64,000 bases of DNA, taken from Nanobdellota archaeon (GTDB lineage: Archaea; Nanobdellota; Nanobdellia; Pacearchaeales; GW2011-AR1). This document shows, piece by piece, positions 6,375 through 60,095 of the stretch. Made by a program: the position numbers and the translations under genes. How positions within the stretch are numbered: position 1 is the first letter of the stretch; each line of letters begins with the position of its first letter. The notes beneath the pieces are model-generated. The model saw only the letters and a list, made by a program, of their open reading frames with translations. It did no database searches and was not told the origin of the DNA. The DNA lies in NCBI GenBank assembly GCA_024654505.1, contig JANLHN010000007.1, positions 2,205 through 66,204 of the forward strand, in the 5' to 3' direction.

Positions 6375-6375
6375 A

Positions 6376-9300
6376 ATGGATAATAGGTTAAATGTTGAAG
6401 ACACAGAGAAATATTTTGAAGAGCTAGGCAACAGGGTGAAAGAGGAATACATTATTGCTAATGGGGCGAGGTCGAAAGGGTTAGACCCTGTTAATCGTGT
6501 TGAAATTCCCTTAGCAATGACTATGGCAGAAAAGTCTGTAGGGTTAATAACCACCATTTACCCAGACCTTCCTGTAGAGTCAATTACTGAGCGTATGCTT
6601 CAATTAGAAAAAGAATATGGTCAATTAGATACTTCTGTTAGTTTTTTTATTGCGAAGGAAATTGCGGAAGAGAAGTTTTGTAAATTTAAAGATCAATTAG
6701 AGGCAATTGATGCCGGTCTTAGGGTAGGTTTTGCATATATTACTTTAGGGGTTGTGGCATCTCCAATAGAAGGATATACTGGCCTTGAGCTAGGGAATAC
6801 TAGGGATGGTAAAAAATATTTTATTGCAAGTTTTAGTGGACCTATACGGTCTGCAGGAACTACTGCAACCTGTGTGTTTTTAATGCTTCTTGATTTTTTA
6901 AGAGAACATTTTGGTTATGCAAAATATGATCCCGATGAAAGAGAAATAAAAAGATATGTAACTGAAAATAGAGATTATCATGAGAGAGTGACTAATCTTC
7001 AATATTTCCCTACAGAGGAAGAGATGACATTTTTAGCTAAAAATTTACCAATACAAATTTCTGGAGATCCTACAGAGAAATTTGAAGTTTCTAATTACAA
7101 AGATTTAGATAGAGTTTCTACAAATTTCATTAGGGGAGGTATGTGTCTTACTTTTAGTGAGGGGCTTGCACAAAAGGCACAAAAGGCAATGATGAGGTTA
7201 GAGTCCCCAAAAAAAGCGGGACTTAAATGCACTGGGTGGGATTGGCTTAAAGATTATATTGAGTTACATAAAAAGAGAGAAAAAGGAACAAAAGATGTTG
7301 TTGCAACTTATATCAAAGATTTGGTGGCGGGAAGACCTGTTTATGGTCACCCTGGTGCTGCCGGAGGATTTCGATTTAGATATGGGAGAAGTAGAGTTGC
7401 GGGTTTCTCTGCAGTTTCAATTCACCCAGCTACAATGGGAATCACAAATGGCTTTTTATCTCATGGAACTCAATTGAAAATTGAAAAGCCTACAAAGGGG
7501 TGTATTATAACTTCTTGTGATAAAATTGATGGACCTATAGTTAAATTGAGGAATGGATCTGTGAGAAGAATTTCAGATTTTGAAGAGTCAAAAAGAATTT
7601 ATAAAGATGTTGAAGAAATAATCTATTTAGGAGATATTCTCTTTCCCTTAGGAGATGTTATAGATAGAAATGCGGCATTACCTAAACCAGGTTATGTTGA
7701 AGAGTGGTGGGAGTTAGATGTGGATGAAAAAACAAGTGTTATTGGTGAAAAGAAAGATTTTGATTCTTTCAAATTAAGTTTGGAAAAGGCTGAGGAAATC
7801 AGTAAGAAATATTTTGTTCCTCTCCATCCAAAATATATATTCTATTGGAACCAAATATCTTCAGAGGCCTTTTTTGAATTAATGAACTGGATAAAAAAGG
7901 CAGTTTGGAAGGGAGGAGGGGAGGGAAAGTTAGTTTTTCCTTGGGAGAATTCTATTAGAGAAGAATTTGCCGCGGCAAAAAGGGCATTGGAAATTTTGGG
8001 AGTGGAACATCAAGTAGTCTTAGATAATATAGTTCTTGATAAAGACTCCAAACCTTTTTTAATAAATATAGGTATATATAATTTAGCTGATGGAGAAAGT
8101 CTAAAGAAAAAATCTATAGATATAATAGAAAAAGCCAAAGGTATAGAAAATGTCTTAGAAATTATAAACCTTCTTTCAAATTATAAAATAAAAGATAAGG
8201 CGGGTACATTTATCGGGACTAGGATGGGTCGTCCAGAAAAGGCCAAACTTCGTAAGTTGACTGGTAGTCCAAATGTTCTCTTTCCTGTTTCAGAACAGGG
8301 AGGGAGATTAAGAAGTGTCCAGGCAGCGGTAGAATTAGGATATATTCGGTCAGATTGGCCCCTTTTTCATTGTAATTGTGAGCCTGGAGGTTATGAAACT
8401 CTTTACCCGATTTGTGAAAAGTGTGGAGAAAAAACTATAAGAAAATATTATTGTAGAGAATGTAGAAAAGTGATGGACGCTGAATGTAAGGATCATGAAC
8501 GTAGTAGTCCTTCTTCTCGGAGGAATATTGATAGTAAACATTATTTTGAGAATGCTGCAGAAAAAATAGGGTATAAAAATTATGAAATTCCTCCTTTAAT
8601 TAAGGGTGTGAGGGGAACTAGTAGTGAGGGTCATGAGGTAGAACATTTAGCAAAGGGGATTTTGAGGGCCAAATATAATTTAGCAGTGAATAAAGATGGA
8701 ACTGTGAGATATGATGGAACTGAAATTCCCTTGACTCATTTTAAACCTTTTGAAATAAGAACAAGTTTAGAGAAATTAAAGGGTTTGGGTTATACAAAAG
8801 ATCTTTATGGAGAGCCCCTTCTAAGGGAAGATCAAATCTTAGAATTGAAGCCTCATGACATTGTACTTCCCTCTTGTTCCGTTACTACTGATGAAAAAGC
8901 CGATGATGTTTTTTTTAATCTAGCGAATTTTGTAGATGAGGAATTAGAAAAATTTTATGGTGTTAAAAGATATTACAATTTAAAGTCTAAAGAAGATTTG
9001 ATTGGACACCTTGTTGCTTGTATGGCTCCCCATAATTGTGCAGGTGTTATTGGGAGAATAATTGGATTTAGCGAATTACAAGGTCTTGTGGCTAGCCCTT
9101 ATATGCATGCAGCTATGAGGAGGGATTGTGATGGTGATGAGGCCGCAGTTATGTTATTGATGGATGTCTTAATTAATTTTTCTAGGAAATTTTTGCCTAG
9201 CCATCGCGGAGGAACTCAAGATGCCCCTTTAGTTTTAAATGCGAGAATCCGTGCAGGAGAGGTTGATGACCAGATTTTGTCTTTTGAGGTTTGTGACCAT

Positions 9301-9876
9301 TATCCTTTAGAAGTTTATCGTTTGGCTGAGCAAGGAAAGCACTCTTCTGAATGTAAAATTGAAACAGTATCAGATAGGTTAAAAGAAGGAAGGGACCCCT
9401 TTACATCTACAGGATTTACTCATGACTCTAGTGATTTCAATTTAGGTGTTCTGAATGGGGCTTATAAAATTTTACCTACTATGAGAGAAAAAGTTGAAGG
9501 GCAAATGGAGTTAGTGGGAAAGATTAGGGCAGTAGACACTGAAGATGTAGCAAGACTAATTATAGAGAGACATTTTATCAGAGATATAAGGGGAAATCTT
9601 AGAAAGTTTTCCCAACAGAGGTTCAGGTGTGTGAAGTGTAATGAGAAATTTAGAAGACCTCCCTTAATAGGAGTATGTACAAAATGTGGAGGAAAAATAA
9701 TATTTACAATTAGTGAGGGTTCAATTAAAAAATATTTAGATCCTGCAATGGTTTTGGCAGTGAACTATAATATTTCTGCATATACTAAACAGGGGATGGA
9801 ATTGACAAAAATCTATATTGAAAGTATATTTGGAAAAGAAAAAGATAAACAGGTTGAGTTAGAGAAGTGGTTTTAA
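6376..9876 (+). CDS. dp2: DNA polymerase II (PolD) large subunit DP2
   Basis: About 1166 aa from the ATG at 6376, which is preceded by GGGGAGGGG; the tracked ORF begins at 6349. Cys clusters (CEKCGE..CRECRK, CVKCNEKF..CTKCGG) and MRRDCDGDE. The length argues against an intein. Confidence 0.95.
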   Translation: MDNRLNVEDTEKYFEELGNRVKEEYIIANGARSKGLDPVNRVEIPLAMTMAEKSVGLITTIYPDLPVESITERMLQLEKEYGQLDTSVSFFIAKEIAEEKFCKFKDQLEAIDAGLRVGFAYITLGVVASPIEGYTGLELGNTRDGKKYFIASFSGPIRSAGTTATCVFLMLLDFLREHFGYAKYDPDEREIKRYVTENRDYHERVTNLQYFPTEEEMTFLAKNLPIQISGDPTEKFEVSNYKDLDRVSTNFIRGGMCLTFSEGLAQKAQKAMMRLESPKKAGLKCTGWDWLKDYIELHKKREKGTKDVVATYIKDLVAGRPVYGHPGAAGGFRFRYGRSRVAGFSAVSIHPATMGITNGFLSHGTQLKIEKPTKGCIITSCDKIDGPIVKLRNGSVRRISDFEESKRIYKDVEEIIYLGDILFPLGDVIDRNAALPKPGYVEEWWELDVDEKTSVIGEKKDFDSFKLSLEKAEEISKKYFVPLHPKYIFYWNQISSEAFFELMNWIKKAVWKGGGEGKLVFPWENSIREEFAAAKRALEILGVEHQVVLDNIVLDKDSKPFLINIGIYNLADGESLKKKSIDIIEKAKGIENVLEIINLLSNYKIKDKAGTFIGTRMGRPEKAKLRKLTGSPNVLFPVSEQGGRLRSVQAAVELGYIRSDWPLFHCNCEPGGYETLYPICEKCGEKTIRKYYCRECRKVMDAECKDHERSSPSSRRNIDSKHYFENAAEKIGYKNYEIPPLIKGVRGTSSEGHEVEHLAKGILRAKYNLAVNKDGTVRYDGTEIPLTHFKPFEIRTSLEKLKGLGYTKDLYGEPLLREDQILELKPHDIVLPSCSVTTDEKADDVFFNLANFVDEELEKFYGVKRYYNLKSKEDLIGHLVACMAPHNCAGVIGRIIGFSELQGLVASPYMHAAMRRDCDGDEAAVMLLMDVLINFSRKFLPSHRGGTQDAPLVLNARIRAGEVDDQILSFEVCDHYPLEVYRLAEQGKHSSECKIETVSDRLKEGRDPFTSTGFTHDSSDFNLGVLNGAYKILPTMREKVEGQMELVGKIRAVDTEDVARLIIERHFIRDIRGNLRKFSQQRFRCVKCNEKFRRPPLIGVCTKCGGKIIFTISEGSIKKYLDPAMVLAVNYNISAYTKQGMELTKIYIESIFGKEKDKQVELEKWF

Positions 9877-9990
9877 CTTTGTTAAAACCTCATGTTTTTC
9901 TCACATGCTCAAAAAGAAGTGGTTTTAAATTATTCCAAATTGACGGCTGTGCCATAATTAGAGTCTTTGATTCTTCTAATAGGACTCTGT

Positions 9991-20884: not shown

Positions 20885-20908
20885 AAAGTAACGGCGAAGC
20901 CGTTTCGA
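20885..20908 (+). repeat. Orphan copy of the tRNA-linked hairpin element core
   Basis: AAAGTAACGGC-GAA-GCCGTTTCGA. Same stem (AACGGC/GCCGTT) and flanks as the copies at 59871-59893 and 50759-50780 (minus strand), with a different 3-nt loop. Confidence 0.7.
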
Positions 20909-26257: not shown

Positions 26258-26422
26258 ATGGGGAAAAAGAAGGGCGATTCTGTTGTCAAGATAAGTTCTG
26301 AATTACTTAGAGATGTGGAAGAGTTTATTAAACTAGAAGAAAATAAATTTAAGTATGTGAATCGGAAACAGTTTATTGATATTGCTGTTGCTGAGAAACT
26401 AAAGAAAGAGGGGAAAAGATGA
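26258..26422 (+). CDS. Small ribbon-helix-helix (CopG/Arc-like) protein (not in the ORF track)
   Basis: Hand translation gives MGKKKGDSVVKISSELLRDVEEFIKLEENKFKYVNRKQFIDIAVAEKLKKEGKR (54 aa), a beta-strand plus two helices. The stop overlaps the ATG of the GNAT ORF (ATGA). Confidence 0.5.
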   Translation: MGKKKGDSVVKISSELLRDVEEFIKLEENKFKYVNRKQFIDIAVAEKLKKEGKR

Positions 26423-26961
26423 AAATTGAGATTAAAAAAGTAAGTGATTTATCTTCTGGAGAGAGAAGCTTAATTAATAAACATCGGGTGAAAGAATTTG
26501 ATGGAGAGGCAGCAATGGATTTTAATAAAAAGGAAAATCTCGATAGTGAATTCTTTCTGATTAAATCTAACCAAAAATTGGTTGCCTTTGGAATGCTAAC
26601 CCCTGTGATTATTACTTATCAGAATAAGAAGTATCCTATATTGGGGTTTGGAAGTGGAATTGCTATTGAAAAGAAGAAAGGGTATGGTAGATTACTTATG
26701 GCGCTGAGAATTGCTTATACAAAAAGCCAAGGAAAGACAGGTATTGGTTTTTGTGGAAGACATAATCTTAAGAGATTTGAAGCATATGGAATGAAAACAA
26801 AGAAAAATTACATTAAGAGGTTTATTTATGTTAATCCTACGACGTGGGAAGAATCTAAAGACCCTGATGGAGATATGATTTATATAGAGGGCCCGGATAA
26901 ACTTGTTTCAAAAATGCTCAAAACTAAATCTATTGCGTATTGCAATAAACCTCATTGGTAA
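26419..26961 (+). CDS. GNAT-family N-acetyltransferase
   Basis: 180 aa. Motif A-like IAIEKKKGYGRLLM (xxxGxG) after beta strands LVAFGMLTPV and ILGFGSG. Confidence 0.6.
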   Translation: MKIEIKKVSDLSSGERSLINKHRVKEFDGEAAMDFNKKENLDSEFFLIKSNQKLVAFGMLTPVIITYQNKKYPILGFGSGIAIEKKKGYGRLLMALRIAYTKSQGKTGIGFCGRHNLKRFEAYGMKTKKNYIKRFIYVNPTTWEESKDPDGDMIYIEGPDKLVSKMLKTKSIAYCNKPHW

Positions 26962-26962
26962 T

Positions 26963-29131
26963 ATGGTAAGCACGGACGACATTTTGAAAAAGTATGGGGC
27001 GAAGATAGATGGACAAATGAAGGGATATAATAAAACTCCTGCGGTTAAAGGGGAATTCAGTCAGAGCTACGAAACATTTCGCTCAGAGATGATGCCTGAG
27101 TTTACAAAGTATGAGAAGTGGTGTAAATCTCTAGGGAATGTTTTCAAGATGAATGTGGGAGAAAAGGATAAAAAAAAGATTGAAAGGAATATATACATCT
27201 CCCATCTTAATATTACTGCCAGTGAAGTTGTAGTTTTTGCGACGATGCTTTTACTCCTTACCCTTTTTGGAGGAGTTTTGTTTTTTGTAGGGATATGGTT
27301 ATTGACTGGAGCTTTTTCAATCATGTTCTTATTTTTAGTATTTATTTTATCTGTTTTTTTATTCTTTTATTCTGTTAGTACTCCTGACCGTCTTGCGATG
27401 AAATGGCGTTTGAAAGCGAGTAGTCAAATGGTCCCTGCGATTTTGTATATTGTAATTTATATGAAGCATACTTCTAATTTTGAGAAGGCCGTTGCTTTTG
27501 CGGCAGAACACTTAGAACCCCCTCTTTCGCTGGACTTCAGAAAGATTTTTTGGGATGTTGAAGTGGGAAGATTTTCTACTATAAAGGCAAGTATTGATTA
27601 TTATCTTGAAGATTGGAAAGACTATAGTACAGAATTTATTGAATCCTTCCATTTAATTGAGTCTAGCCTCTACGAACCTGAGGAAGCAAGGCGGGTTGGA
27701 GTTCTTGAGAAATCTCTACAAGTTATTCTTGATGGAGTTTATGATAAGATGCTTAAATATACTCACGAAGTTAAATCTCCTTTGACAAATGTTTACATGT
27801 TGGGAATTGTTTTACCAACGCTCGCTCTTGCGATTTTGCCTTTGGCTTCGACGATGCTTGGTGGGGCAATCAAATGGTATCATGTTTTAATGATTTTTAA
27901 TGTAATTATTCCCTTTATGGTTATTTATTTAACACAAAACGTTATGATGCAGCGTCCAGGAGGATATGGAGAGTCCAGTCTTTTGGAAAAGAATCCCCTT
28001 TATGGAAAATATCTCAGTAAGAAACCCTATTGGAAGGCGTTGGTTTTTACAATTCCTTTGTTTTTAGTTGGTTTAATTCCATTTTTTTGGAGATATACCC
28101 ATCTTCCATTAACTCTTGGATTCGCTAGAGATTATTCTTGGATTGAACTTGGTCTTCCTTTCCTTGGGAGGTCTGGTGCATTTGGTATAATTGAGCAAGG
28201 TGGTAACTTGTTTGGGCCTTTTGGAGCTCTTTCTTTGATATTAAGTTTGTTTATTCCTCTCTCGATTGCATTGTTTTTTGTTATAGCTTATAAGGGAAAA
28301 ACAGAGGAGATTCTTACTGCTAGAGAAAAATCAAAGTCTCTTGAAAAGGAGTTTACTTCTTCCTTATTTCAATTAGGGAATAGGATTGGTGATGGAATTC
28401 CTGCAGAAATTGCTTTTGCGAAAATTGCGGATTCTACAAAAGGAACTGCAACAGAAGGATTTTTTAGATTAGTTAATGGGAATATTCAACAACTTGGGAT
28501 GAGTTTGGAAAGGTCTTTATTTGACCCAAAAAGGGGTGCAGTGATTTTTTACCCTTCCCAGTTGGTTGCGACCTCTATGAGGATTTTAGTAGAGTCTGTT
28601 AAAAAAGGTTTGAAGGTTGCTGCTAGAAGTTTAATGTCTATTAGTGATTATGTTAAGAATATTAAAAAGATTAATGAGAGATTGAATGATTTGCTTGCAG
28701 ATATTATTTCTGATATGAAAAGTAATATGACTTTTTTAGCACCCCTCCTTTCAGGAATCATCGTCGGTTTGTCTGGAATGATTACAACTATTTTAGGGAG
28801 TTTATCTGCAATGTTTGCATCTGGAGCAGCGGGTGATTCGGCGGCAATTAGCGATGCTGGAGGGGTACAAGGGATACTTTCTATTTTTGATATCACTCAG
28901 ATGATTCCTACTTATTGGCTCCAGATTGTTGTAGGAATTTATTTAGTTCAGATTGTCTTTATTTTAACATCTACCTTGGTTACAATTAAATCTGGAAGAG
29001 ACCTGTTACAGTCGACGGCAGAAACTGGAAGAAATTTGAAAAGGACAATTGTTCTTTACACTATCATTGCTTTTGTCTCTGTTGTTTTATTAACCTTGAT
29101 TGCTTCTGTTGCTTTGTCTGGTTTGACTTAA
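26963..29131 (+). CDS. Large polytopic membrane protein, candidate pilus platform (TadC/ArlJ(FlaJ)/PilC-like role)
   Basis: About 722 aa from the ATG at 26963; the tracked ORF starts at 26903 and overlaps the GNAT gene. Clusters of TM segments alternate with soluble segments. It sits next to the ATPase. Role inferred from context. Confidence 0.55.
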   Translation: MVSTDDILKKYGAKIDGQMKGYNKTPAVKGEFSQSYETFRSEMMPEFTKYEKWCKSLGNVFKMNVGEKDKKKIERNIYISHLNITASEVVVFATMLLLLTLFGGVLFFVGIWLLTGAFSIMFLFLVFILSVFLFFYSVSTPDRLAMKWRLKASSQMVPAILYIVIYMKHTSNFEKAVAFAAEHLEPPLSLDFRKIFWDVEVGRFSTIKASIDYYLEDWKDYSTEFIESFHLIESSLYEPEEARRVGVLEKSLQVILDGVYDKMLKYTHEVKSPLTNVYMLGIVLPTLALAILPLASTMLGGAIKWYHVLMIFNVIIPFMVIYLTQNVMMQRPGGYGESSLLEKNPLYGKYLSKKPYWKALVFTIPLFLVGLIPFFWRYTHLPLTLGFARDYSWIELGLPFLGRSGAFGIIEQGGNLFGPFGALSLILSLFIPLSIALFFVIAYKGKTEEILTAREKSKSLEKEFTSSLFQLGNRIGDGIPAEIAFAKIADSTKGTATEGFFRLVNGNIQQLGMSLERSLFDPKRGAVIFYPSQLVATSMRILVESVKKGLKVAARSLMSISDYVKNIKKINERLNDLLADIISDMKSNMTFLAPLLSGIIVGLSGMITTILGSLSAMFASGAAGDSAAISDAGGVQGILSIFDITQMIPTYWLQIVVGIYLVQIVFILTSTLVTIKSGRDLLQSTAETGRNLKRTIVLYTIIAFVSVVLLTLIASVALSGLT

Positions 29132-29161
29132 ATTTATAAACTTTAGATTGTTGTGCTTGTT

Positions 29162-29503
29162 ATGATGAATAAAAGAGGTTTGGAGATGGCTGTTAAGACA
29201 GTTATTTTAATGATACTTGGGATATTGATTTTAGTAGGGACGATATACATGGTTACTGTTCAAGGAAATATGTTTAGAGAAAAGACAGCCGGAACAAAAA
29301 GTAATGTTGATGTGGTGGTTGATTCTTGTAATACTCTAGCTTCTACAGAGTCTTATTATGCTTATTGTTGTGAGAAAAGAACAGTTATTTTTGGGAGTGG
29401 TGTTGCAGATGCAGAATTGAATTGTGAAGAAGTGGCTTCGGCAGATTGGACTCCTGGAAACACAAAAATCCTTGATTGTTCTTCAATTAATTGTGTCGAG
29501 TAA
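29162..29503 (+). CDS. Pilin-like protein with class III signal peptide, Cys-rich
   Basis: MMNKRG/LEMAVKTVILMILGILILVG, with 6 Cys in the globular part. TTTATAAA at 29134-29141 lies about 25 nt before the ATG at 29162; the tracked start at 29153 is GTG. Confidence 0.65.
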   Translation: MMNKRGLEMAVKTVILMILGILILVGTIYMVTVQGNMFREKTAGTKSNVDVVVDSCNTLASTESYYAYCCEKRTVIFGSGVADAELNCEEVASADWTPGNTKILDCSSINCVE

Positions 29504-29583
29504 ACTTTATAAAGCAACATTAAAATGTTCCATAATAAAAGTTTCTTCGGAAACTTTATAAAGAATAAATGGGTGAGTATATT

Positions 29584-30087
29584 ATGAGAGAGATGAATAA
29601 AAGGGGGCAGGGTATGAGTATTACCACAATTATTTTGATTGTGATTGGTATTGTTGTCTTGGTTATTTTAATCTGGGGTTTTTCTACAGGATGGAATAAT
29701 TTATGGGACAAGGTTAGTGGAAGAACTTCTTCTTCAAATGTCGATGATGTTGTGGCTGGTTGTAAGGTTGCTTGTGATACTGGTGCCAGAGATGATTTTT
29801 GTAATGCTGGTAGGACTATAAAGTTTGGTGCTGAGCGAGAGGTTACTAAGACTGTTGTAGTGGATGAGAATAAAAAAGCAGAATTGAAGAGTTTATGGGA
29901 TGCTGAAGTTGCCAAGAACCCCCAAGAGAAGGATAAGCTTGATGCAGCTAAAAAAGCTTACGATGATTATGAAAAAGGAATTTTAGTTGAAAGTGTTAGT
30001 GAAATATCTGGAACATGTAATGATTTTTCAGGGAAGGTTTATACTGGTCTCCGAGTTGCTAGGTGTACCAAATTTCAATGTGCATAA
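29584..30087 (+). CDS. Pilin-like protein with class III signal peptide, Cys-rich
   Basis: MREMNKRGQG/MSITTIILIVIGIVVLVIL. The TATA-like CTTTATAAAG at 29554-29563 favours a start at 29584 or 29593 over the tracked 29569. Confidence 0.6.
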   Translation: MREMNKRGQGMSITTIILIVIGIVVLVILIWGFSTGWNNLWDKVSGRTSSSNVDDVVAGCKVACDTGARDDFCNAGRTIKFGAEREVTKTVVVDENKKAELKSLWDAEVAKNPQEKDKLDAAKKAYDDYEKGILVESVSEISGTCNDFSGKVYTGLRVARCTKFQCA

Positions 30088-30194
30088 TTTCTTTTAATTC
30101 TTTTCGGAATCTTTATTAATCTATAAAGTCTGTTTTATCTATGGAAAAGGAAGTTCTTTGAACTTTCGATTCCATTTTATAGAGGAATGAAAAA

Positions 30195-30335
30195 ATGGAA
30201 ATGGAGGAGATAGTAAAGATGGTGATTTTTGTTGTTATTTTGGTTGTTCTTGTTGGAGCGGTCTTCCTTCTTCTTAGTGGGAAAGGTGCCGCCGTTTTAG
30301 ATTCTATTCGGAATTTATTAAGGAGGGGTGGTTAA
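30195..30335 (+). CDS. Small single-TM protein (not in the ORF track)
   Basis: Hand translation gives MEMEEIVKMVIFVVILVVLVGAVFLLLSGKGAAVLDSIRNLLRRGG (46 aa). Ends immediately before the ATG at 30336. Confidence 0.35.
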   Translation: MEMEEIVKMVIFVVILVVLVGAVFLLLSGKGAAVLDSIRNLLRRGG

Positions 30336-31769
30336 ATGGATTCTAGGAGGGGAACTCAAGGATGGACGATGCAAAAGCTTATCACAATTATTCTCTTAGT
30401 TCTGGTAATGGCTTTAGTGATTTATGGAATTACTATTGGAGGTTTTGGCCCTCTTGTTGATAGGGCAGAAGGAGCCTTTAATGAAGTTTTGATATTTTTA
30501 GGTATTAAGGATGGTCCTCCATCAGTTACAAACTGTTTTAAGAAGTTTCTTTTCGATGTTCCTGGAGGAAATGAGTTGTTAGATTCTCTCGGGTTGGATG
30601 GAGAAGTCAGGCGAAATGTGAAATTTGAATATTGTGAGAATGTTTGTACTTTAAATGACACTAGTCTGGGAGATTATAGGAGACTTTCAGATAGTTATGA
30701 AATTTTTGGAGAAGGCCTAGTTTATAATGATGTGGTGGGTTCCGAAAGGAAAATGGGATGGCACGAATATGAAGATTACCTTAAAGACCCTGATGGAATA
30801 AAATCTTCGGAGTTCTACTGGGAGCTTTACGACCAGCTCGTAAAGGCTATTATTGGGGAAAGTAAAGAAAATTCAATGTTTGTAGACAGGCTTTATTCTT
30901 CAAGGTTCTCCAAAGACCTAACCTTCTATGGTAATGGAGGGGGCTTGTTCGACAAACCTTCATCCGCTCTTTGGAAAGAGGGAGAGTGGATTGTCATGGG
31001 AGATGGGGAGAAAGTTTATACTGGTCTAGATGATAGAAAAGCAATTGAGACTTTTAAGAGTTATGTTGATGATGCGTATGATGATAAAGTTTATTATCAA
31101 ATAAGGGACCCTGTTCCGGTTGGGGGTAGCTCAATGAGTAATTCGGATTATCATGGAGAGTCAATTCAAGAAATATTTGGTGGGACAAATGTTGAAGGAG
31201 ATGAGGGTGAGTTTGATCACTATACTAAAACAGAGGCACTAATAGATTATGTCACCAAGAAGAAAATAGAATTTTCCGAAGCAGTCAAACCGTCTTCCGA
31301 AGAGGTGGCTAAACTTCGTTCTCTTGTTGAGAGTAAGAAAGTGATAGTAGATGAGGAGGTTTATGATTTGGGAATCAAAGTTCATAACGGATTTCCTCTT
31401 ATAATTATTTCAGGAGATAAGGAATACGCTCTTGCTTTTTCTCCAAGAGTTAAATTAAATTTATTATCTGGAACTAGGAAACCTGCAGAGAAGTTTTCTC
31501 CTTATCATGTTTCTATTCCATTGAATTTTTATTCTTGGGAGATTGTTTCTTTAGACGATGGGGAGAGATTCTTGAAACCTGTTGGCTCGTGGGAAGATTA
31601 TATGCTTTTTGAAAATGACTTTAAATTGTTTAGGACTGGAAGATTGATTAAAGACTTTTTAGATAAAACTTGTGGTTTTTTATCTTATTATAGAGATTTG
31701 AGTGAAGATGAACTTATGTTGAGGTATTATCAAAATCTTTATGGCCCCAACGTTCTTGTGATGAGATAA
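30336..31769 (+). CDS. Large pilin-like or pilus-associated protein (class III signal peptide-like N-terminus)
   Basis: 477 aa. MDSRRGTQG/WTMQKLITIILLVLVMALVIYGI followed by a large soluble domain. Confidence 0.55.
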   Translation: MDSRRGTQGWTMQKLITIILLVLVMALVIYGITIGGFGPLVDRAEGAFNEVLIFLGIKDGPPSVTNCFKKFLFDVPGGNELLDSLGLDGEVRRNVKFEYCENVCTLNDTSLGDYRRLSDSYEIFGEGLVYNDVVGSERKMGWHEYEDYLKDPDGIKSSEFYWELYDQLVKAIIGESKENSMFVDRLYSSRFSKDLTFYGNGGGLFDKPSSALWKEGEWIVMGDGEKVYTGLDDRKAIETFKSYVDDAYDDKVYYQIRDPVPVGGSSMSNSDYHGESIQEIFGGTNVEGDEGEFDHYTKTEALIDYVTKKKIEFSEAVKPSSEEVAKLRSLVESKKVIVDEEVYDLGIKVHNGFPLIIISGDKEYALAFSPRVKLNLLSGTRKPAEKFSPYHVSIPLNFYSWEIVSLDDGERFLKPVGSWEDYMLFENDFKLFRTGRLIKDFLDKTCGFLSYYRDLSEDELMLRYYQNLYGPNVLVMR

Positions 31770-31772
31770 AAT

Positions 31773-32282
31773 ATGAAAATAAAATATGAAAAAAAAGCGG
31801 CATTTCTTTGGAATAATACTTTTAGTTTGATTATTGGTGCAGCAATAGTTGTTCTTTTAGTAATTTTCTTTTTTATGATTCTTGCTCCAGTGTATGATAG
31901 GGCTGACGAGATAGCAAAAGCGAACAAAGAGGCTTTAGTAAAGGAATTGGAAAAGGCTGCTTTGGGAAATGGAGGAGAGTTTAGTTTATGGGGACTTCCA
32001 GAAGATGGTGTGGCTGTTTATTTAGTTTATTTTGGGGGAGAGGCCGCCCACGTTACTGATGATTTTCTTTTTTGGGCACCTAATGCTGCAGAACATAATC
32101 TTTGTATTTGTTATTTTTCTGGTCAGGTTTTTTGTAAGCATTGTATAGATTTGGAAGCGGATGAGGTGGTATTAAATGGCTCTATCGAAAAATCATGGTC
32201 TTTTAAAGAAAATCAAAATGGAGAGACTGCTAGATTGAAAATTATTAAAGAGGATGGGGCTTATGTTTTTGAAAAGATTTAG
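31773..32282 (+). CDS. N-terminally anchored pilus-locus protein
   Basis: 169 aa. Basic N-terminus, then NNTFSLIIGAAIVVLLVIFFFMILAP. Cys-containing C-domain. Confidence 0.5.
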   Translation: MKIKYEKKAAFLWNNTFSLIIGAAIVVLLVIFFFMILAPVYDRADEIAKANKEALVKELEKAALGNGGEFSLWGLPEDGVAVYLVYFGGEAAHVTDDFLFWAPNAAEHNLCICYFSGQVFCKHCIDLEADEVVLNGSIEKSWSFKENQNGETARLKIIKEDGAYVFEKI

Positions 32283-32403
32283 TTTATTTAACCATCGTGC
32301 TGAAAGCAATATTACAGAGGTTCTTAAATGGATTCTCTTCCTTGCTATTGCGGTTGCTGCGGGTTTTGCAATAATAACTGCTGTAGGGAATATGGCAGGA
32401 TAA
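32263..32403 (+). CDS. Small hydrophobic protein, Flp-pilin-like in shape (not in the ORF track)
   Basis: Hand translation gives MFLKRFSLFNHRAESNITEVLKWILFLAIAVAAGFAIITAVGNMAG (46 aa). Overlaps the end of 31773..32282 in another frame. Confidence 0.3.
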   Translation: MFLKRFSLFNHRAESNITEVLKWILFLAIAVAAGFAIITAVGNMAG

Positions 32404-32427
32404 ATTTATTAAGATGGAGAAAGAATA

Positions 32428-33345
32428 ATGATTATGTTGAAAAAAAGAGGACAATGGAGAGGTTATCTTCTTCCCTTGATTTTAGGACTAATTGTAGTGG
32501 CACTCGTTCTTTATTTTATTTTTAATGAGTATTTTACTAGTGATGAATTAAATTGGGAACAATGTAGCCAAAGTTTTACTCTTAGGGCCACGATGCCTGA
32601 ATCTAAATTTATTGGAATGAATTTTAACTCTTTTAAGAACGAATTTCCTTTAAAATGTAAGACACAAATTATTGAAATAGATGATTCTCTTCTCAAGGAG
32701 GAAAACGGAATTACCAAAGCCGAAAGTATAATTGCAGAGACTATGGCACAGTGTTGGAATTTATACGGTCGAGGGGATGGAAATGCATTCCCTTCTAGCT
32801 TTTTAGGTATAAATTCTTTTTGTGTCCCCTGTGCTAGGATTCATTTTACTGAAGAAGCAAAGAAATATCTTAAAGAGATAGAACCTGATTCTACAAAAGG
32901 AGTTATTGACATTAAAAGAGGGTTGGAGACTGGCGGCGCTGATTCTGCATTTAGTTATTTACAAAATTCTGGGAAGAAATTTTCTGCATTTTCTCCTGGA
33001 AATGCCCTTCCCTTTGAATTTGGAAAAGTCTTTAGGGTTTATGAAGATAAGTTGGATAAGGAGATTTGTAATAGACTTAATGGAGAGTGTGAAAGTGGTG
33101 CCGCTTTTCATAAGACTACATTACCTATATTCTTTTATCCAGATTTGGGAGATATATTGGTAAGTTATGGAGTCATTGTTTCTTCAGATGATAGTGGGCC
33201 CGGGGATTATCTTCCATATTTGTTTTATTTTCAAATAGACCAAAAAAATCCAAACCCTTTTTCAGAGTTAACAAAAGAATATTTAGATGGTCCTAGATGG
33301 CATAATTCTGATTTTTGTGAGGAGTGGGATGGGGTTCCCAATTAA
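32428..33345 (+). CDS. Large pilin-like protein (class III signal peptide-like N-terminus)
   Basis: 305 aa. MIMLKKRGQ/WRGYLLPLILGLIVVALVLYFIF, then a Cys-containing soluble domain. Confidence 0.55.
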   Translation: MIMLKKRGQWRGYLLPLILGLIVVALVLYFIFNEYFTSDELNWEQCSQSFTLRATMPESKFIGMNFNSFKNEFPLKCKTQIIEIDDSLLKEENGITKAESIIAETMAQCWNLYGRGDGNAFPSSFLGINSFCVPCARIHFTEEAKKYLKEIEPDSTKGVIDIKRGLETGGADSAFSYLQNSGKKFSAFSPGNALPFEFGKVFRVYEDKLDKEICNRLNGECESGAAFHKTTLPIFFYPDLGDILVSYGVIVSSDDSGPGDYLPYLFYFQIDQKNPNPFSELTKEYLDGPRWHNSDFCEEWDGVPN

Positions 33346-33851
33346 TCTATCTTACACAATTTGATTTTTCTATCAAAGTAAGAATCATTCCTATGTCGTC
33401 TCCAAAGTTCTATACTCCCATTTCCCATATCCTTAATTTTCCATGATGATGGATACTTATTAGTATTTGTTTCTTCTTGAGACATGCCATCTTTTTCATA
33501 TATCAATTTTATAACTCTTCTTTCAAAAAACCCATTTCTTACTCCAGCATCTTCTGTGAGAAATCTTTCTTTTCCTCTTGGATTTGTAAAGCTCCCCTTA
33601 TGGGTTGTGAAATCTATTTCGGAGTCTTTTATTTCTACTAAGTTGTCGGTATAATATTTTTCTCCCCAAACACGTTTTACTTCTCCAGTTCTAGAATCTA
33701 TTTCTTCTTCACTTTCTATCTTATAAACCCCATAAAAATCCTTTTGGCTTTCTCCACAGGAGGGAAGTATGGCAGATACTGCAAGTGCCCCTGCAAGGCC
33801 GAGAAATCCTCTCCTAGAAACGGCTAGGTCTTCTAATCTTTCTTTTGCCAT
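33342..33851 (-). CDS. Putative Tat-exported lipoprotein
   Basis: 169 aa. Twin-arginine motif SRRGFLGLAGALAVSAILPSC with a lipobox-like LPSC. The only minus-strand gene inside the pilus locus. Confidence 0.55.
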   Translation of the reverse strand: MAKERLEDLAVSRRGFLGLAGALAVSAILPSCGESQKDFYGVYKIESEEEIDSRTGEVKRVWGEKYYTDNLVEIKDSEIDFTTHKGSFTNPRGKERFLTEDAGVRNGFFERRVIKLIYEKDGMSQEETNTNKYPSSWKIKDMGNGSIELWRRHRNDSYFDRKIKLCKID

Positions 33852-33931
33852 TGTTTTATTAGGTGTTTGGAGTTTTAAAGTTTTTATATAGTCAAAGATA
33901 CTTTTATTAATTGGTTTTGTTATGTCTTTTT

Positions 33932-34285
33932 ATGAGGAATAAGAGGGCTGCGATTTTGAATCAAATTGTTATCCAAATAATTTTGATTGGACTTGTCTTT
34001 TCCGTTTTTATTATGGCTACTGCAGGGAAAGTAAACGGCAGAGGGGTTCGACAACAAATCATAGAAAAGCAGACGGCTATTTTAATTGAGTCTGGCATTC
34101 CTGGAGTTTCATTTTCTATAGAAAAATTACAGTTTAATGGTTACATCGAAGAGGTAAATGTCAAGGAAGGGAAGGTCTATGTTAATATAGATGGCCTTCC
34201 GTCTGGAAAAGGATATCCTTTTTTTAGTCCATACCCTGTAGAGGTTATTGAAGAAGAAAATAAATTTGTAATTTTTATAGGATGA
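33932..34285 (+). CDS. Pilin-like protein
   Basis: First in-frame ATG at 33932 gives MRNKRA/AILNQIVIQIILIGLVFSVFIMA. The tracked start at 33911 is TTG. Confidence 0.55.
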   Translation: MRNKRAAILNQIVIQIILIGLVFSVFIMATAGKVNGRGVRQQIIEKQTAILIESGIPGVSFSIEKLQFNGYIEEVNVKEGKVYVNIDGLPSGKGYPFFSPYPVEVIEEENKFVIFIG

Positions 34286-34782
34286 TAAACAAAAGGGCTG
34301 TAGCTTTGGGTTCAGCTGTAGTAACTCTTTATAGAGTTATGATGGTAATCGTAATCGCATTTATTGTTTTGGGGGTATCTTCAATATTTTATGTGCATTA
34401 TATTAATATTCGGGCAACAGAAGCGGTTTTATTGACTAGACATGTTGTTGATTGTTTTGCACCAGACGGTTCTTTGGATTTAAATCTTCTTAGAGACAAT
34501 AAAGGGATTGAAGTTTTTGATTATTGTCATATTAGTGGGGCAAATTTGGAGAGATTTTTTGTGAGAGTCAACATAAGCAAGGTGTCTGGAGAAAATATTT
34601 TTATGTTTGAGCAAGGAGATTCTGGGTCGTTATGGGTCCGAAAAGCTATTGAGGTTGGAATTGACAAAAAATATGCTCCTGGTTATTATAAAGGGGAATA
34701 TCCAGTCCTATTGATGGAAGATTTAAATAAGGTTGGGGACGGCAAATTGATTGTTGAATCTCTAGTTAAATATGAAAAATAA
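34282..34782 (+). CDS. Pilin-like protein
   Basis: 166 aa. MINKRA/VALGSAVVTLYRVMMVIVIAFIVLGV. ATGA overlap with the previous gene. Confidence 0.55.
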   Translation: MINKRAVALGSAVVTLYRVMMVIVIAFIVLGVSSIFYVHYINIRATEAVLLTRHVVDCFAPDGSLDLNLLRDNKGIEVFDYCHISGANLERFFVRVNISKVSGENIFMFEQGDSGSLWVRKAIEVGIDKKYAPGYYKGEYPVLLMEDLNKVGDGKLIVESLVKYEK

Positions 34783-35059
34783 AAATGGAATGATTGGGCT
34801 TTTACCAATATGGTTAATATTTACCCTCCTTATAGTTGTAATTTTAATCTTTTTTGTGATGGTTTCTTCTATGATCAAAACACTTGATGATGCGAATTCT
34901 GGAGTCAAGGTTCTGAAGGAAAGGGCAATTGGGTTGCAAAAAGTAGAACCTTATGTTCAGAAGGAATACCTGCAGCTAACTCAAATAAAATTTTTAAGTA
35001 AGAGTACCAACAAGTCATTAAATGAAATTATATTGGAGGTGACTCATGAAAAACAATAG
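34772..35059 (+). CDS. Small pilin-like protein
   Basis: 95 aa. MKNKNG/MIGLLPIWLIFTLLIVVILIFFVMV. Overlaps its neighbours. Confidence 0.5.
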   Translation: MKNKNGMIGLLPIWLIFTLLIVVILIFFVMVSSMIKTLDDANSGVKVLKERAIGLQKVEPYVQKEYLQLTQIKFLSKSTNKSLNEIILEVTHEKQ

Positions 35060-35624
35060 GGGCCAAATTTTTGCATTGTATCTTTTTTTATTGACTATAG
35101 CTATGTGTACTTTGGTGCTCAGTCTTTATCTTGTTCAACAAAAAAATGCAAGAAATTCGTTGGTTTCACCATTGGAGGTTTTAAAATTACGAAATGATTT
35201 GGCTATTTTTGAGCTTTTAGAAGAAGAAGCAGTAGAAGATTCAATTGGAGAAGTTTTTCAAAGTAATGGATTACCAAAAACAGACTCAAATAGGGAAGAA
35301 TTTATTTTAGCATTTAGGAGTTCTTTTCTTCAAAAAATCAAGTCTGAACCAAAGATGATGAATTTTTTATCAGAGAACTTGGTTGTAAATGGGGAGAAGG
35401 TTAACTTAAAATTGTTTAATATTGATAAGTTTATAGAAAATGGAATCTACAAAAAATCAGAGAATACAATAGAAGGCAATAAAATTTTAATAAAGAGGGG
35501 TAAGGTTATCAAAACGATGCCGCTGGAGGCAGAGGAAGTATTTGGAGCTAAGATTAGTTTTCCTGTAGAATTTTCTTTCGAATTTGAAAAATCTTATGAA
35601 AAGGAGATTTCGGGAGGAATATAA
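35046..35624 (+). CDS. Pilin-like protein
   Basis: 192 aa. MKNNRGQ/IFALYLFLLTIAMCTLVLSLYLV. Confidence 0.55.
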   Translation: MKNNRGQIFALYLFLLTIAMCTLVLSLYLVQQKNARNSLVSPLEVLKLRNDLAIFELLEEEAVEDSIGEVFQSNGLPKTDSNREEFILAFRSSFLQKIKSEPKMMNFLSENLVVNGEKVNLKLFNIDKFIENGIYKKSENTIEGNKILIKRGKVIKTMPLEAEEVFGAKISFPVEFSFEFEKSYEKEISGGI

Positions 35625-50355: not shown

Positions 50356-50640
50356 GTTATATCTGGGAAAAATTGGTTTTTAAAGTTAAGGGTAGGAGAC
50401 AGTCCCACCAGTGCTCGCAATTTGCATTTCGCAATCAGATATTTCTCTATTAGATTACTCGAAGTAACTTCAAAGAAGTTTCATGTTTTTCTCCAAGGAG
50501 AAAAGAAGCGAATTGCTCGTCGAACCTCCAAGTTCTCATTCTCTCCATATAGCCCCGCCGACTCACGCCTAGGTCTGCGATTATCTATTTTATTTGTCCA
50601 GACCTAAACGTTCGGGATTCGATTTCGAATTCTGGAATTA

Positions 50641-50660
50641 ATGCTATCTTGAGATAGCAT
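50641..50660. repeat. Perfect palindrome (9-bp arms) immediately 3' of tRNA-Gln
   Basis: ATGCTATCT-TG-AGATAGCAT. Confidence 0.9.
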
Positions 50661-50661
50661 A

Positions 50662-50734
50662 TAGCCCCGCCAGGATTCGAACCTGGGTCCCAGGCTTCAA
50701 AGGCCTAGATCCTTGACCGCTAGACTACGGGGCT
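50662..50734 (-). tRNA. tRNA-Gln (anticodon TTG)
   Basis: Minus strand reads AGCCCCG-TA-GTCT..GGAT-C-TAGGC-CTTTGAA-GCCTG-GGAC-CCAGG-TTCGAAT-CCTGG-CGGGGCT-A. 73 nt, no encoded CCA. Confidence 0.9.
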
Positions 50735-50736
50735 AG

Positions 50737-50796
50737 TATTTTTGCCACGTTGTCTTCTCGAAACGGCCCTGCCGTTACTTTAGACTACGGGGCTAG
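50737..50796 (-). repeat. 44-nt conserved hairpin element plus an exact 16-nt copy of the tRNA-Gln 5' end
   Basis: Minus strand reads CTAGCCCCGTAGTCTA (50796-50781), then AAGTAACGGC-AGG-GCCGTTTCGAGAAGACAACGTGGCAAAAATA (50780-50737), then the same 16-mer (50736-50721) starting the tRNA. Confidence 0.9.
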
Positions 50797-50902
50797 TGTA
50801 ATTATGAAAGAATGGGATGATTTTTAAGGTTTATGTAACATAAACAATGGCCAAATCATAGACTCTCTAAAGGTTTTGATGGGGGGTTTTAATATGGAGG
50901 GG

Positions 50903-56007: not shown

Positions 56008-56052
56008 TCTTCAGCAAAATGCTTAAAAAGAGTTTTTTCGAGGTAAGTACAT

Positions 56053-56083
56053 GCCTCCTGCATAGCTCAGTTGATAAAGCGCA
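56053..56083 (+). repeat. Degenerate copy of the 5' third of tRNA-Thr
   Basis: GCCTCCTGCATAGCTCAGTTGATAAAGCGCA compared with tRNA nt 1-28 GCCTGCATAGCTCAGTTGATAGAGCACA. Differences: a 3-nt insertion and two substitutions. Confidence 0.85.
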
Positions 56084-56116
56084 CTTCGTTTGCGATATCA
56101 CCTCGCTTGTGGGAAT

Positions 56117-56189
56117 GCCTGCATAGCTCAGTTGATAGAGCACAAGTTTTGTAAACTTGGGGTCGGGGGTTTGACTCCCTCTGCAGGCT
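56117..56189 (+). tRNA. tRNA-Thr (anticodon TGT)
   Basis: GCCTGCA-TA-GCTC-AGTTGATA-GAGC-A-CAAGT-TTTGTAA-ACTTG-GGGTC-GGGGG-TTTGACT-CCCTC-TGCAGGC-T. The T loop is atypical (TTT instead of TTC). Confidence 0.85.
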
Positions 56190-56202
56190 TATTTCTTTAA
56201 AC

Positions 56203-56297
56203 ACTTGACAGTCGGGGGCGAACAATTTGCTTTGAGAAAATAAATGTTAAAATCTTTTTCGAGATGCAAATTGTGAGGTGACTCCCTCTGCAGGCTT
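56203..56297 (+). repeat. Interrupted copy of the 3' part of tRNA-Thr
   Basis: ACTTGACAGTCGGGGG (56203-56218) resembles tRNA ACTTGGGGTCGGGGG. Next comes a hairpin, ACAATTTGC (56222-56230) paired with GCAAATTGT (56266-56274). Then an exact 18-nt GACTCCCTCTGCAGGCTT (56280-56297) identical to tRNA 56173-56190. Confidence 0.85.
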
Positions 56298-59556: not shown

Positions 59557-59829
59557 ATGGATAGAATTAAAATTAATAGTATAAGTCAGAGAAAGTTTTT
59601 AGATTTGATGGTTGAGAAATTAAATTCTCCCTCTCTTCGAGGGCTTTTACAATTTGGATTTGATGTTAAATATTCTTCGTTGAAGAATTATTATTCCGGA
59701 ATTCGTCTGATACCTAAAGATTTGTTTGATGATTTAATTGAATTGAGTGGGGTGAGTGTCGATTTTGAAATTGTTGGGGGAAGTTGGGGACAGATTAAGG
59801 GAGGGAAGTTAGGGAAGAAGAAGGTTTAA
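59557..59829 (+). CDS. Hypothetical protein
   Basis: First ATG at 59557; the tracked start at 59554 is TTG. ATTTAAATAG at 59529-59538 lies about 24 nt upstream. Confidence 0.45.
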   Translation: MDRIKINSISQRKFLDLMVEKLNSPSLRGLLQFGFDVKYSSLKNYYSGIRLIPKDLFDDLIELSGVSVDFEIVGGSWGQIKGGKLGKKKV

Positions 59830-59855
59830 AAATTTTAGGTGTTGATAAAATCTAA

Positions 59856-59914
59856 GACCCTGTAGTCTAAAGTAACGGCCTAGCCGTTTCGAGAAGACAA
59901 CATGGTTATAGACT
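59856..59914 (+). repeat. Exact 15-nt copy of the tRNA-Val 5' end plus the 44-nt conserved hairpin element
   Basis: GACCCTGTAGTCTAA (59856-59870), then AGTAACGGC-CTA-GCCGTTTCGAGAAGACAACATGGTTATAGACT (59871-59914), then the same 15-mer (59915-59929) starting the tRNA. Confidence 0.9.
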
Positions 59915-59985
59915 GACCCTGTAGTCTAATGGCAGTACGTATCGTTGACTTCGATGAGGCCCAAGTTCGATTCTTGGCAGGGTCA
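59915..59985 (+). tRNA. tRNA-Val (anticodon GAC)
   Basis: GACCCTG-TA-GTCT-AATGGCA-GTAC-G-TATCG-TTGACTT-CGATG-AGGC-CCAAG-TTCGATT-CTTGG-CAGGGTC-A. Irregularities: one D-stem mismatch and a pyrimidine at position 37. Followed by a T5 run. Confidence 0.8.
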
Positions 59986-60095
59986 TTTTTCTATGAAACT
60001 TACTAAGTTATAATATTGTTAGTAACTAACTTAGTAAGTAATTAACTAAGAAATATTTATAAGTGGGCTTTTCTTGTAATCTCTTAGAGGATTGT

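Follow-up and report, generated by a model that had tools for sequence, protein, structure and literature searches.

The subject of this analysis is a cassette of duplicated sequence lying directly in front of a transfer RNA (tRNA) gene for valine, within a window of 64,000 nucleotides (nt; the whole stretch of DNA that was analysed) from a Nanobdellota archaeon (contig JANLHN010000007.1, assembly GCA_024654505.1). The gene set of the window is archaeal (SRP54, FtsY, RIO kinase, GINS, S3Ae, L44e, orc1/cdc6, PolD) and the relatives of its SRP54 belong to metagenome-assembled genomes of Pacearchaeota, Woesearchaeota and Nanoarchaeota, with up to 87% amino-acid identity. tRNA-Val(GAC) was called at 59914-59986 by ARAGORN and at 59915-59985 by Rfam; acceptor pairing sets its ends at G1 = 59915 and at the discriminator A, 59985. 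As reported in a preliminary description of this DNA, the exact 15-mer GACCCTGTAGTCTAA is present twice, at 59856-59870 and at 59915-59929, the second being nt 1-15 of tRNA-Val; two matches were obtained in none of 100 shuffles. The 44 nt which separate the copies (59871-59914) also match that account, with AACGGC-CTA-GCCGTT followed by TCGAGAAGACAACATGG. The features of the locus are these:

59825-59832, plus strand: TATA box TTTAAAAA, ending exactly 23 nt before 59856 and serving the partial tRNA-Val copy.
59856-59870, plus strand: arm A, an exact copy of tRNA-Val nt 1-15, the predicted transcription start and the 5' arm of the leader hairpin.
59872-59890, plus strand: conserved inner hairpin GUAACGGC-CUA-GCCGUUUC, its Y.U mismatch invariant; in nine copies the stem covaries and the loop is free.
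59895-59907, plus strand: arm A' AGACAACAUGGUU (as DNA, AGACAACATGGTT), antisense of tRNA-Val nt 1-13, which pairs with 59856-59868.
59908-59914, plus strand: spacer AUAGACU from the leader hairpin to tRNA-Val.
59915-59985, plus strand: complete tRNA-Val(GAC), then a T5 terminator (ARAGORN; Rfam RF00005, 51.3 bits).

The insert had previously been pictured as a copy of the tRNA 5' end joined to a small, unrelated hairpin. The inner hairpin is indeed there, but the unrelatedness did not survive since the 3' end of the insert can pair with the partial copy; what is present is a single 52-nt hairpin comprised of the tRNA 5' copy (A), the conserved inner hairpin and an antisense arm (A') which tracks the identity of the tRNA. 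RNAfold gave -18.8 kcal/mol for the 52 nt of the Val leader (z = -3.9) and the tRNA stays free to fold. The parts of the hairpin are, in order, an acceptor-like stem with an internal loop, a U8-A pair, a stem of four base pairs (bp), GUCU/AGAC, an internal loop and the conserved inner hairpin, and A' of Val agrees with the perfect complement at 10 of 13 positions. The order of the element is TATA, 23 nt, A (from about -3/+1 to nt 13-15), the inner hairpin AAAGYAAC-stem-loop-stem-GUUUCRWGA, A', a spacer of 3-9 nt whose sequence is not conserved across copies, and an intact tRNA.

Three of the four tRNA genes in the window carry a cassette, tRNA-Ser (2080-2160) being the one without. The recurrence of the Val element at tRNA-Gln, as first proposed, was borne out: the 32-nt core AAGTAACGGC-NNN-GCCGTTTCGAGAAGACAAC has a second occurrence in the window (50749-50780, minus strand), with a 17-nt copy (ACTAGCCCCGTAGTCTA, 50781-50797, minus strand) on one side and the complete tRNA-Gln on the other. 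The proposal that the window holds three copies of one element stands for the layout, which is seen at Val, Gln and Thr, and for the insert sequence of Val and Gln, but not for the insert of Thr, which is unrelated. The Gln and Thr leaders adopt the same kind of fold as that of Val, and their features are:

50821-50828, minus strand: TATA box CTTAAAAA belonging to the tRNA-Gln unit; the duplicated ACT follows at 23 nt and A1 of the first copy at 26 nt.
50743-50797, minus strand: tRNA-Gln cassette, comprised of ACT plus tRNA-Gln nt 1-14, the inner hairpin and A' AGACAACGUGGCA; supported by the covariance model, a direct repeat of 17 nt and the fold.
50662-50734, minus strand: complete tRNA-Gln(TTG) (ARAGORN, Rfam).
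56022-56029, plus strand: TATA box CTTAAAAA of tRNA-Thr, ending 23 nt before G56053.
56053-56116, plus strand: tRNA-Thr cassette, with a copy of nt 1-22 containing a CCU slip, the unrelated inner hairpin and an antisense arm (fold of -19.1 kcal/mol).
56117-56189, plus strand: complete tRNA-Thr(TGT) (ARAGORN, Rfam).

The copy-to-copy spacings in the window are 59, 60 and 61 nt, the last belonging to tRNA-Thr, whose direct repeat is 27 nt long and 93% identical. A covariance model (described below) matched the tRNA-Gln cassette at 50743-50794 with 76.6 bits. Outside the loop, the Val and Gln cores differ at one base, A versus G in AAC-R-TGG, and the partner of this variable base is position 6 of the tRNA (U in Val, C in Gln).

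The wider distribution was surveyed with ARAGORN in the window, the metagenome loci and 80 SRP54 loci (numbered with an L below), which together gave 147 tRNAs; in 11 of these a partial 5' copy lies 55-69 nt upstream. A covariance model built from eight copies was then searched against 1.25 Mb of related loci. The association with tRNAs which had been anticipated is complete in this search, with nine full copies (that in L051 newly added), each of them right in front of a tRNA gene (Val, Gln or Glu), and nothing comparable away from tRNAs in the 1.25 Mb. An exact-pattern scan of GTDB genomes with the core from the window gave no match; a metagenome scan with part of the core gave two true copies, upstream of tRNA-Gln(CTG) in L001 and of an intron-containing tRNA-Glu(CTC) in L004, together with two chance matches. 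Every cassette is followed by a complete tRNA (51-66 bits), and the direct repeats are 13-27 nt long and 55-69 nt apart, with a left boundary at about -4 to +1.

Two tRNA genes of the metagenome loci deserve a separate description. The tRNA-Met of L001 (3220-3590, minus strand) has a 5' cassette with a 21-nt copy, a spacing of 69 nt and a different inner sequence, and two tandem copies of the whole T-arm and acceptor 3' strand downstream, a strong oligo-T terminator following only the last. In L004 (7684-7902, minus strand) tRNA-Glu(CTC) combines a 5' cassette with an 89-nt intron, put at position 40 by ARAGORN, so that a cassette and a true intron can share one gene.

The hairpin is supported by compensatory changes in an alignment of the nine full cassette copies, on which all of the covariation statistics are based. 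Here 88.8% of the cells are paired, and six pairs (1:52, 2:51, 5:48, 6:47, 7:46 and 22:30) show changes on both sides; the observed covariation was reached by none of 500 shuffles, and sliding the partners lowers the pairing to 31-51%. Pair 22:30 of the inner stem is seen as GC, UA and AU, and the flanks of the inner hairpin, AAAG-AAC and GUUUC, are invariant around a free loop. Pairs 4:49 and 5:48 are open in 5-6 of the nine copies, forming a conserved internal loop. In the arms, pairs 2:51, 6:47 and 7:46 vary on both sides with tRNA identity, as in GACCCUG/CAUGGUU of Val and AGCCCCG/CGUGGCA of Gln, or in A7-U46 of L051 against G7-C46 in all others. The first copy of L051 has drifted, with 10 of 14 positions matching its tRNA, and pairing is kept through the A7-U46 double change. 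Bases by which the first copy departs from its tRNA include U5 in L045 and U4 in L001 and L051.

As to where the antisense arm came from, A' is as long as the reverse complement of A1-13 and carries AGAC, the complement of GUCU, whilst the 3' strand of the tRNA D-stem is GUAC in Val and GGAU in Gln, with A' unlike either. From its length and the AGAC, A' resembles an inverted copy of A and not a remnant of the 3' half of the tRNA. A 'mini-tRNA' created by internal deletion, in which A' would derive from the tRNA's own 3' strands, is disfavoured on the same two grounds.

The promoter was approached by scoring TATA-like 8-mers 10-45 nt upstream of cassette-free tRNAs and keeping those which reached at least 6.5 of 7. 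In the related genomes, some 80 of about 109 such strong assignments end 22-24 nt before +1. In each of the 12 cassette-bearing genes a top-scoring TATA precedes the first copy by 22-26 nt, and in front of the complete tRNA no 8-mer exceeds a weak 6 of 7; the best one before the complete tRNA-Val is GTTTCGAG, which reaches 5 of 7 and is located within the element. The claim that the only well-placed promoter serves the partial copy is thereby upheld and extended to all 12 genes. Judged by this geometry, transcription would start at the first copy. Of the two options which had been offered, an unusually long structured leader or an intron, the leader is favoured.

In principle the hairpin could instead be a separate small RNA gene driven by this TATA box, with the complete tRNA relying on a weak promoter of its own inside the element. 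This would make sense of the GTTTC(G/A)(A/T)GA motif of the element, since in the Val/Gln/Glu family GTTTC(G/A)(A/T)G, 16-23 nt before +1, is usually the best TATA-like 8-mer before the complete tRNA. However, the motif attains only 5-6 of 7 against the TATA pattern of the clade, its distance wanders over those 16-23 nt where real promoters show a sharp peak at 22-24 nt, and no oligo-T terminator stands between hairpin and tRNA; we consider such an arrangement improbable.

The spacing of 22-24 nt equals the position of box A in Nanoarchaeum equitans, whose tRNAs are made without leaders (PMC3491384; PMC10941002). Two observations were made on the organisation of tRNA genes in general. In the Pacearchaeota-like clade they are solitary, with the TATA 8-mer mostly 22-24 nt before +1, which hints at a clade-specific leaderless style resembling that of Nanoarchaeum. 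In the distant Woesearchaeota loci L067, L070, L078 and L079 tRNAs stand 0-11 nt apart and must be co-transcribed, then cut apart.

The remaining option of the preliminary description was that the 59 nt are a non-canonical intron at a D-loop position, the first copy being the true 5' exon and the splicing endonuclease removing the segment to leave the mature tRNA unchanged. It is true that removal of any 59-nt register inside the repeat restores the tRNA sequence and that transcription apparently begins at +1 of the first copy, and according to one report (PMC5829648) the endonucleases of DPANN archaea accept relaxed motifs. However, a scan of all 12 cassettes at the correct repeat spacing for the helix-bulge-helix-bulge-helix motif (hBHBh', or the relaxed HBh'), which would put the splice sites into 3-nt bulges 4 bp apart, found no register with a central helix and both flanking helices. 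As both splice sites would fall within identical repeats, a 4-bp central helix of the bulge-helix-bulge (BHB) type would need a self-complementary 4-mer, the pairing being between the 4 nt that precede one splice-site bulge and the identical 4 nt that precede the other. A complete, uninterrupted tRNA is moreover present downstream. Lastly, the first copy of tRNA-Thr has a 3-nt slip (GCCU-CCU-GCA) and that of L051 differs at 4 of 14 positions, including A7, which is unable to pair with C66; the acceptor stems would thus be defective if these first copies were exons. A canonical BHB tRNA intron is rejected, with no BHB in any cassette and the tRNA uninterrupted downstream, and we regard a non-canonical one as highly improbable.

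The cassettes are patchily distributed among close relatives. The orthologues of tRNA-Val, tRNA-Gln and tRNA-Thr are empty in the closest relatives, L005, L006, L008 and L010, where TATA, 23 nt and tRNA follow one another directly; the nearest homologues of the neighbouring 91-amino-acid protein are 67% identical, and the tRNA-Val sites there are empty too. In an SRP54 tree the cassette-bearing genomes are scattered within one sub-clade amongst empty sisters (L012/L014, L011/L019, L015/L016), thus indicating repeated gain or loss. Within the window the Val and Gln cores are identical, and the cores at orthologous tRNAs of other genomes differ, which indicates that copies were spread or homogenised inside a genome.

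tRNA-Val itself showed some further peculiarities. Its anticodon loop (59945-59951) is UUGACUU, with a pyrimidine at position 37, where tRNAs normally have a purine; several relatives are alike and L087 has G. In several relatives (L014, L016, L056, L091 and L092) the gene is inverted relative to the same flanking genes, when compared with 59915-60060 of the window, and a repeat rich in ACTTACTAAGT is found downstream of tRNA-Val in the window and upstream of it in L014, L016 and L056.

From the architecture of the unit, its fold with compensatory changes, its restriction to tRNA 5' ends, the geometry of the promoter and its patchy presence, we infer both what the cassette does and how it came about. 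The reading we prefer, and to which we would give about an even chance, is that of a DNA insertion or fold-back duplication behind a leaderless-type promoter, as a result of which the native promoter now produces a hairpin leader of 55-69 nt, the A:A' pairing shields the tRNA and 5' processing is of the ordinary kind. Transcription would begin at arm A, just as it would have begun at +1 of the tRNA when no insertion was yet there. A would pair with A' during RNA synthesis, so that the antisense arm is kept from invading the acceptor and D stems, and a 5'-end processing activity of the ribonuclease P (RNase P) type would cut off the leader to yield a normal tRNA. At the DNA level the cassette would have been born as an inverted-plus-direct duplication of the tRNA 5' end, likely routes being template switching during replication or the insertion of a hairpin repeat like the repetitive extragenic palindromic (REP) sequences. 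Gene conversion or re-templating might then keep the arms matched to the neighbouring tRNA, and recombination between the two direct copies could bring about a precise loss which restores the empty site exactly. On this reading the cassette is most likely a tolerated, semi-selfish genomic element as opposed to one that is essential for tRNA biogenesis.

Several points weigh against it. Four copies on different tRNAs and contigs share an identical 29-nt core whilst their loops differ, and the first copy agrees with the tRNA at 95% of positions when A' agrees with the perfect complement at only 74%, with 84% of the arm positions still paired; the first copy must therefore be either homogenised with the tRNA or under constraint, and so much constraint would be more expected of a functional element than of a neutral scar. 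Complete copies all face the same way and differ little in size (55-61 nt), which random replication error would not predict, and among the approximately 50 open reading frames (ORFs) of the window scanned, none encodes a transposase or recombinase linked to the hairpin. Where transcription starts, that the leader is cut off and by which enzyme are predictions. Neither RNase P RNA nor its subunits were found in the 64-kb window by Rfam or by Pfam (about 50 ORFs), a result that is uninformative for a genome of about 1 Mb; the leaderless layout is nevertheless that of Nanoarchaeum equitans, which lacks RNase P (PMC3491384), and if the present clade were also without it the processing step would fail. 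As neutral insertion does not fully explain the conservation of the core and first copy or the fixed orientation and size, functional readings have to be kept in play.

One such reading takes the unit as a functional RNA module, a minihelix mimicking a tRNA which directs an alternative 5' maturation or controls the folding or expression of the tRNA; its parts might be a 7-bp acceptor-like stem with an internal loop, a 4-bp D-like stem and a protein-binding inner hairpin, and an RNase Z-like enzyme or another nuclease might, for example, cut 3' of it. An inner hairpin that is strongly conserved, its loops free and its stems covarying, would be expected of a module of this kind, as would a first copy kept at 95% identity, the internal loop conserved at 4:49 and 5:48, an A following the 3' arm in seven of nine copies, as if it were a discriminator, the clade-wide leaderless-type promoters and the presence of a cassette on three of the four tRNAs of the window. 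It is hard to reconcile with the patchy distribution, where the same tRNA works without a cassette in sister genomes, with the unrelated inner sequences of the Thr and Met cassettes, and with inner hairpins that also stand alone and in antisense, as a DNA repeat would; furthermore, no Rfam family or known motif (K-turn, C/D box, ribozyme) matches. We deem this module, its suggested parts and the example of its enzyme unlikely, though by no means far-fetched, and it would matter greatly if the clade lacks RNase P.

The inner hairpin has a distribution of its own. The pattern AAGTAAC-stem-loop-stem-GTTTCR has 15 occurrences in the loci against 3 expected, and solo inner hairpins with no tRNA copy are found at 20886-20907 (plus strand, intergenic) and 50462-50483 (plus strand) of the window and at 14285-14306 of L008 (minus strand), that at 50462-50483 being antisense to the adjacent tRNA-Gln and within the loop of a 3' cassette hairpin described below. 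Taken by itself, the inner hairpin is thus a short imperfect palindrome with a conserved stem, a free loop and intergenic copies in more than one orientation, suggesting that it may be a REP-like dispersed DNA hairpin repeat. The idea that the locus is the target-site-duplication footprint of a tiny mobile element therefore stands in part: the empty sister sites and the solo hairpins agree with it, and the duplication of 13-27 nt and the tRNA-specific arm do not. A transposon or miniature inverted-repeat transposable element (MITE) with a target duplication of fixed length and terminal inverted repeats of its own was rejected, as the repeat varies over 13-27 nt and the inverted arm pairs with, and follows, the target.

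The searches for an accompanying enzyme or known RNA can be given briefly. A Pfam scan of the approximately 50 ORFs of the window, which covers 64 kb of the genome, revealed no integrase, transposase, recombinase or splicing endonuclease, which is uninformative for the genome as a whole; no Y1/HUH transposase is among these scanned ORFs, although this was not a dedicated search and extends over the 64 kb only. For both the 5' and the 3' cassettes, Rfam at permissive thresholds returned nothing but tRNA and noise. A ribozyme, a C/D or H/ACA small RNA and a member of the kink-turn (K-turn) family were discarded, as Rfam gave no match and inspection by eye showed neither C/D boxes nor, in the inner hairpin, a canonical K-turn.

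Duplications are also found at the other end of the tRNA genes, forming a mirror image of the 5' cassettes. In 27 of the 147 tRNAs a copy of the 3' end lies 56-283 nt downstream, in some cases in tandem. The interval in many of them holds a partial T-arm copy, a long conserved T-loop hairpin which ends in CGARAUGCAAAUUGYGAG, and the tRNA 3'-end copy with 1-4 nt in addition; ten occurrences of the motif were counted at a distance of 60-230 nt downstream from a tRNA (Thr, Gln or Lys) and on its strand. The two in the window are:

56190-56297, plus strand: 3' cassette of tRNA-Thr.
50546-50661 (region 50400-50661), minus strand: 3' cassette of tRNA-Gln, with an older second unit further downstream.

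Further 3' cassettes were found in L005, L006, L008, L013, L016, L045 and others. In this clade, partial duplications with a hairpin are thus drawn to tRNA genes at the 5' and the 3' end alike.

Such duplications recall the attachment (att) sites of integrative elements, and the cassette could be the remnant or miniature of an integrase insertion into a tRNA gene, cis-mobilisable-like and with the crossover in the D-arm (in the T-arm for the 3' cassettes). At the 5' cassettes a direct repeat of a tRNA segment does flank foreign DNA, the tRNA is restored and the native promoter remains with the distal copy. Partial copies of the tRNA 3' end are common and sometimes tandem, with a conserved element end by the distal copy as in att arms, and the inversion of tRNA-Val against its flanks in some relatives is in keeping with the same idea. 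Set against this, the 40-54 bp between the 5' repeats are too short for a double-stranded circle or an integrase gene, sizes are narrow when deletion remnants should be spread, and a complementary arm varying with tRNA identity is not predicted. There is also no sign of the rest of such an element: no recombinase gene or element body lies within the 40-54 bp interval, no integrase is among the scanned ORFs, and IMG/VR holds no matching attP. A viral or plasmid attP was accordingly dropped as a candidate, the two IMG/VR matches to the junction motif being chance matches inside ORFs and without the hairpin; the motif of the 3' cassettes had no match in IMG/VR. As att remnants, whether integrase-type or cis-mobilisable, the 3' units are more convincing than the 5' cassettes, and for the latter we find this origin quite unlikely.

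A more speculative proposal, to which we attach little probability, regards 5' and mirror-image 3' units alike as a self-templating hairpin element or as a host module for the ends of structured-RNA genes. A protein-bound hairpin might copy the terminal 13-27 nt of its target in direct and in inverted form, a step that we put forward with equal reserve; just as doubtful are the suggestions that the minihelix, in a lineage which has abandoned 5' leaders and perhaps RNase P too, would direct a maturation independent of RNase P, or that the unit is an intermediate on the way to split or intron-bearing tRNA genes.

Some other repeats of the window were noted along the way. A generic scan for the order A-x-A'-A proved noisy, and its best non-tRNA case is 4718-4792 (plus strand), where direct 18-mers, CTGAGGACAATTCCCAAA, stand 57 nt apart around a degenerate inverted copy. 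These repeats lie between orc1/cdc6 (3471-4685) and PolD DP1/DP2 (4821-9876) and may be origin recognition boxes of a replication origin and not a cassette; the intergenic region 2905-3470 was noted along with them. At 9877-9935 (minus strand), between the convergent PolD DP2 and YbjQ-like genes, a 14-nt direct repeat, TTAAAACCACTTCT, with copies 52 nt apart is accompanied by an inner hairpin and an inverted copy, giving a cassette-like layout with no tRNA. Elsewhere, 26419-35624 comprises ten ORFs (95-305 amino acids) without any Pfam match, which may represent a lineage-specific or mobile region.

If the preferred reading of an inserted hairpin leader is correct, it has several consequences. 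Tools for finding tRNAs call only the intact copy, so that annotation overlooks the leader and misplaces the transcription start. The combination of Nanoarchaeum-like promoters with long leaders would mean either that RNase P has been retained, and is needed for the cassettes, or that another enzyme trims the 5' ends; Nanoarchaeum is the one organism reported to live without RNase P (PMC3491384). The cassettes may also show small-scale genome change in progress, in which a hairpin repeat gains direct and inverted copies of its target, the arms track the tRNA and a precise loss is possible, and this has a bearing on the origin of the disrupted, split and intron-containing tRNA genes of archaea.

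How, then, does the cassette compare with systems already described? With N. equitans (Randau 2008 and 2012; PMC3491384) it shares membership of the same phylum-level group (Nanoarchaeota/DPANN) and a box A/TATA at a fixed distance, with a start at +1 of the tRNA; this fixed distance is what we see in the cassette-free tRNAs, for which the start sites are predicted. However, no tRNA leader exists there, whereas here a minority of the genes have a structured leader of 55-69 nt. The non-canonical introns and split tRNA genes of archaea, which depend on a BHB, are alike in having extra sequence at a D-loop position, related inserts in different tRNAs, and a promoter-proximal tRNA 5' fragment followed by sequence complementary to the tRNA. 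They are unlike the cassette in that the latter has no BHB and a complete tRNA downstream, so that splicing is not required.

Partial tRNA duplications at the att sites of archaeal and bacterial integrative elements were reportedly described by Williams in 2002. Direct repeats of a tRNA segment around foreign DNA, an intact tRNA and tandem accretion are common to both, a likeness which fits the 3' cassettes; by contrast the 5' cassette lies on the promoter side, measures about 59 bp, has no recombinase and bears an arm that is reverse-complementary to the duplicated segment. The REP or palindrome-associated repeats and the MITE-like hairpin repeats form another class for comparison. The inner hairpin resembles these in being a short, imperfect palindrome whose mismatch is conserved and whose loop is free, and in having solo copies dispersed between genes, one of them antisense to the adjacent tRNA, but the full unit is found at tRNA 5' ends only and its outer arms are copied from the target instead of being borne by the element.

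Template switching is documented (PMC10710096; bioRxiv 10.1101/2021.04.15.439925) as creating hairpins and making them perfect again. A single event yields a reverse-complement copy of adjacent sequence and stems can be re-perfected; with a return point upstream of the point of departure, one such event would suffice for the order A, A', A. A' is such a reverse complement of adjacent sequence and the orthologous sites are empty. However, template-switch events are sporadic and may fall anywhere, whereas the cassette geometry and inner hairpin recur across tRNAs and genomes; a simple fold-back event does not account for the inner hairpin which the Val, Gln and Glu cassettes have in common.

The layout as a whole is not described in Rfam or in the literature searched, and within that literature we have not seen a description of arms copied from the target in both orientations. 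The cassette is perhaps best viewed as a combination of known ingredients, namely the leaderless tRNA promoters of Nanoarchaeum, the partial duplications targeted to tRNAs at att sites, the REP-like hairpins and the hairpins created by template switching.

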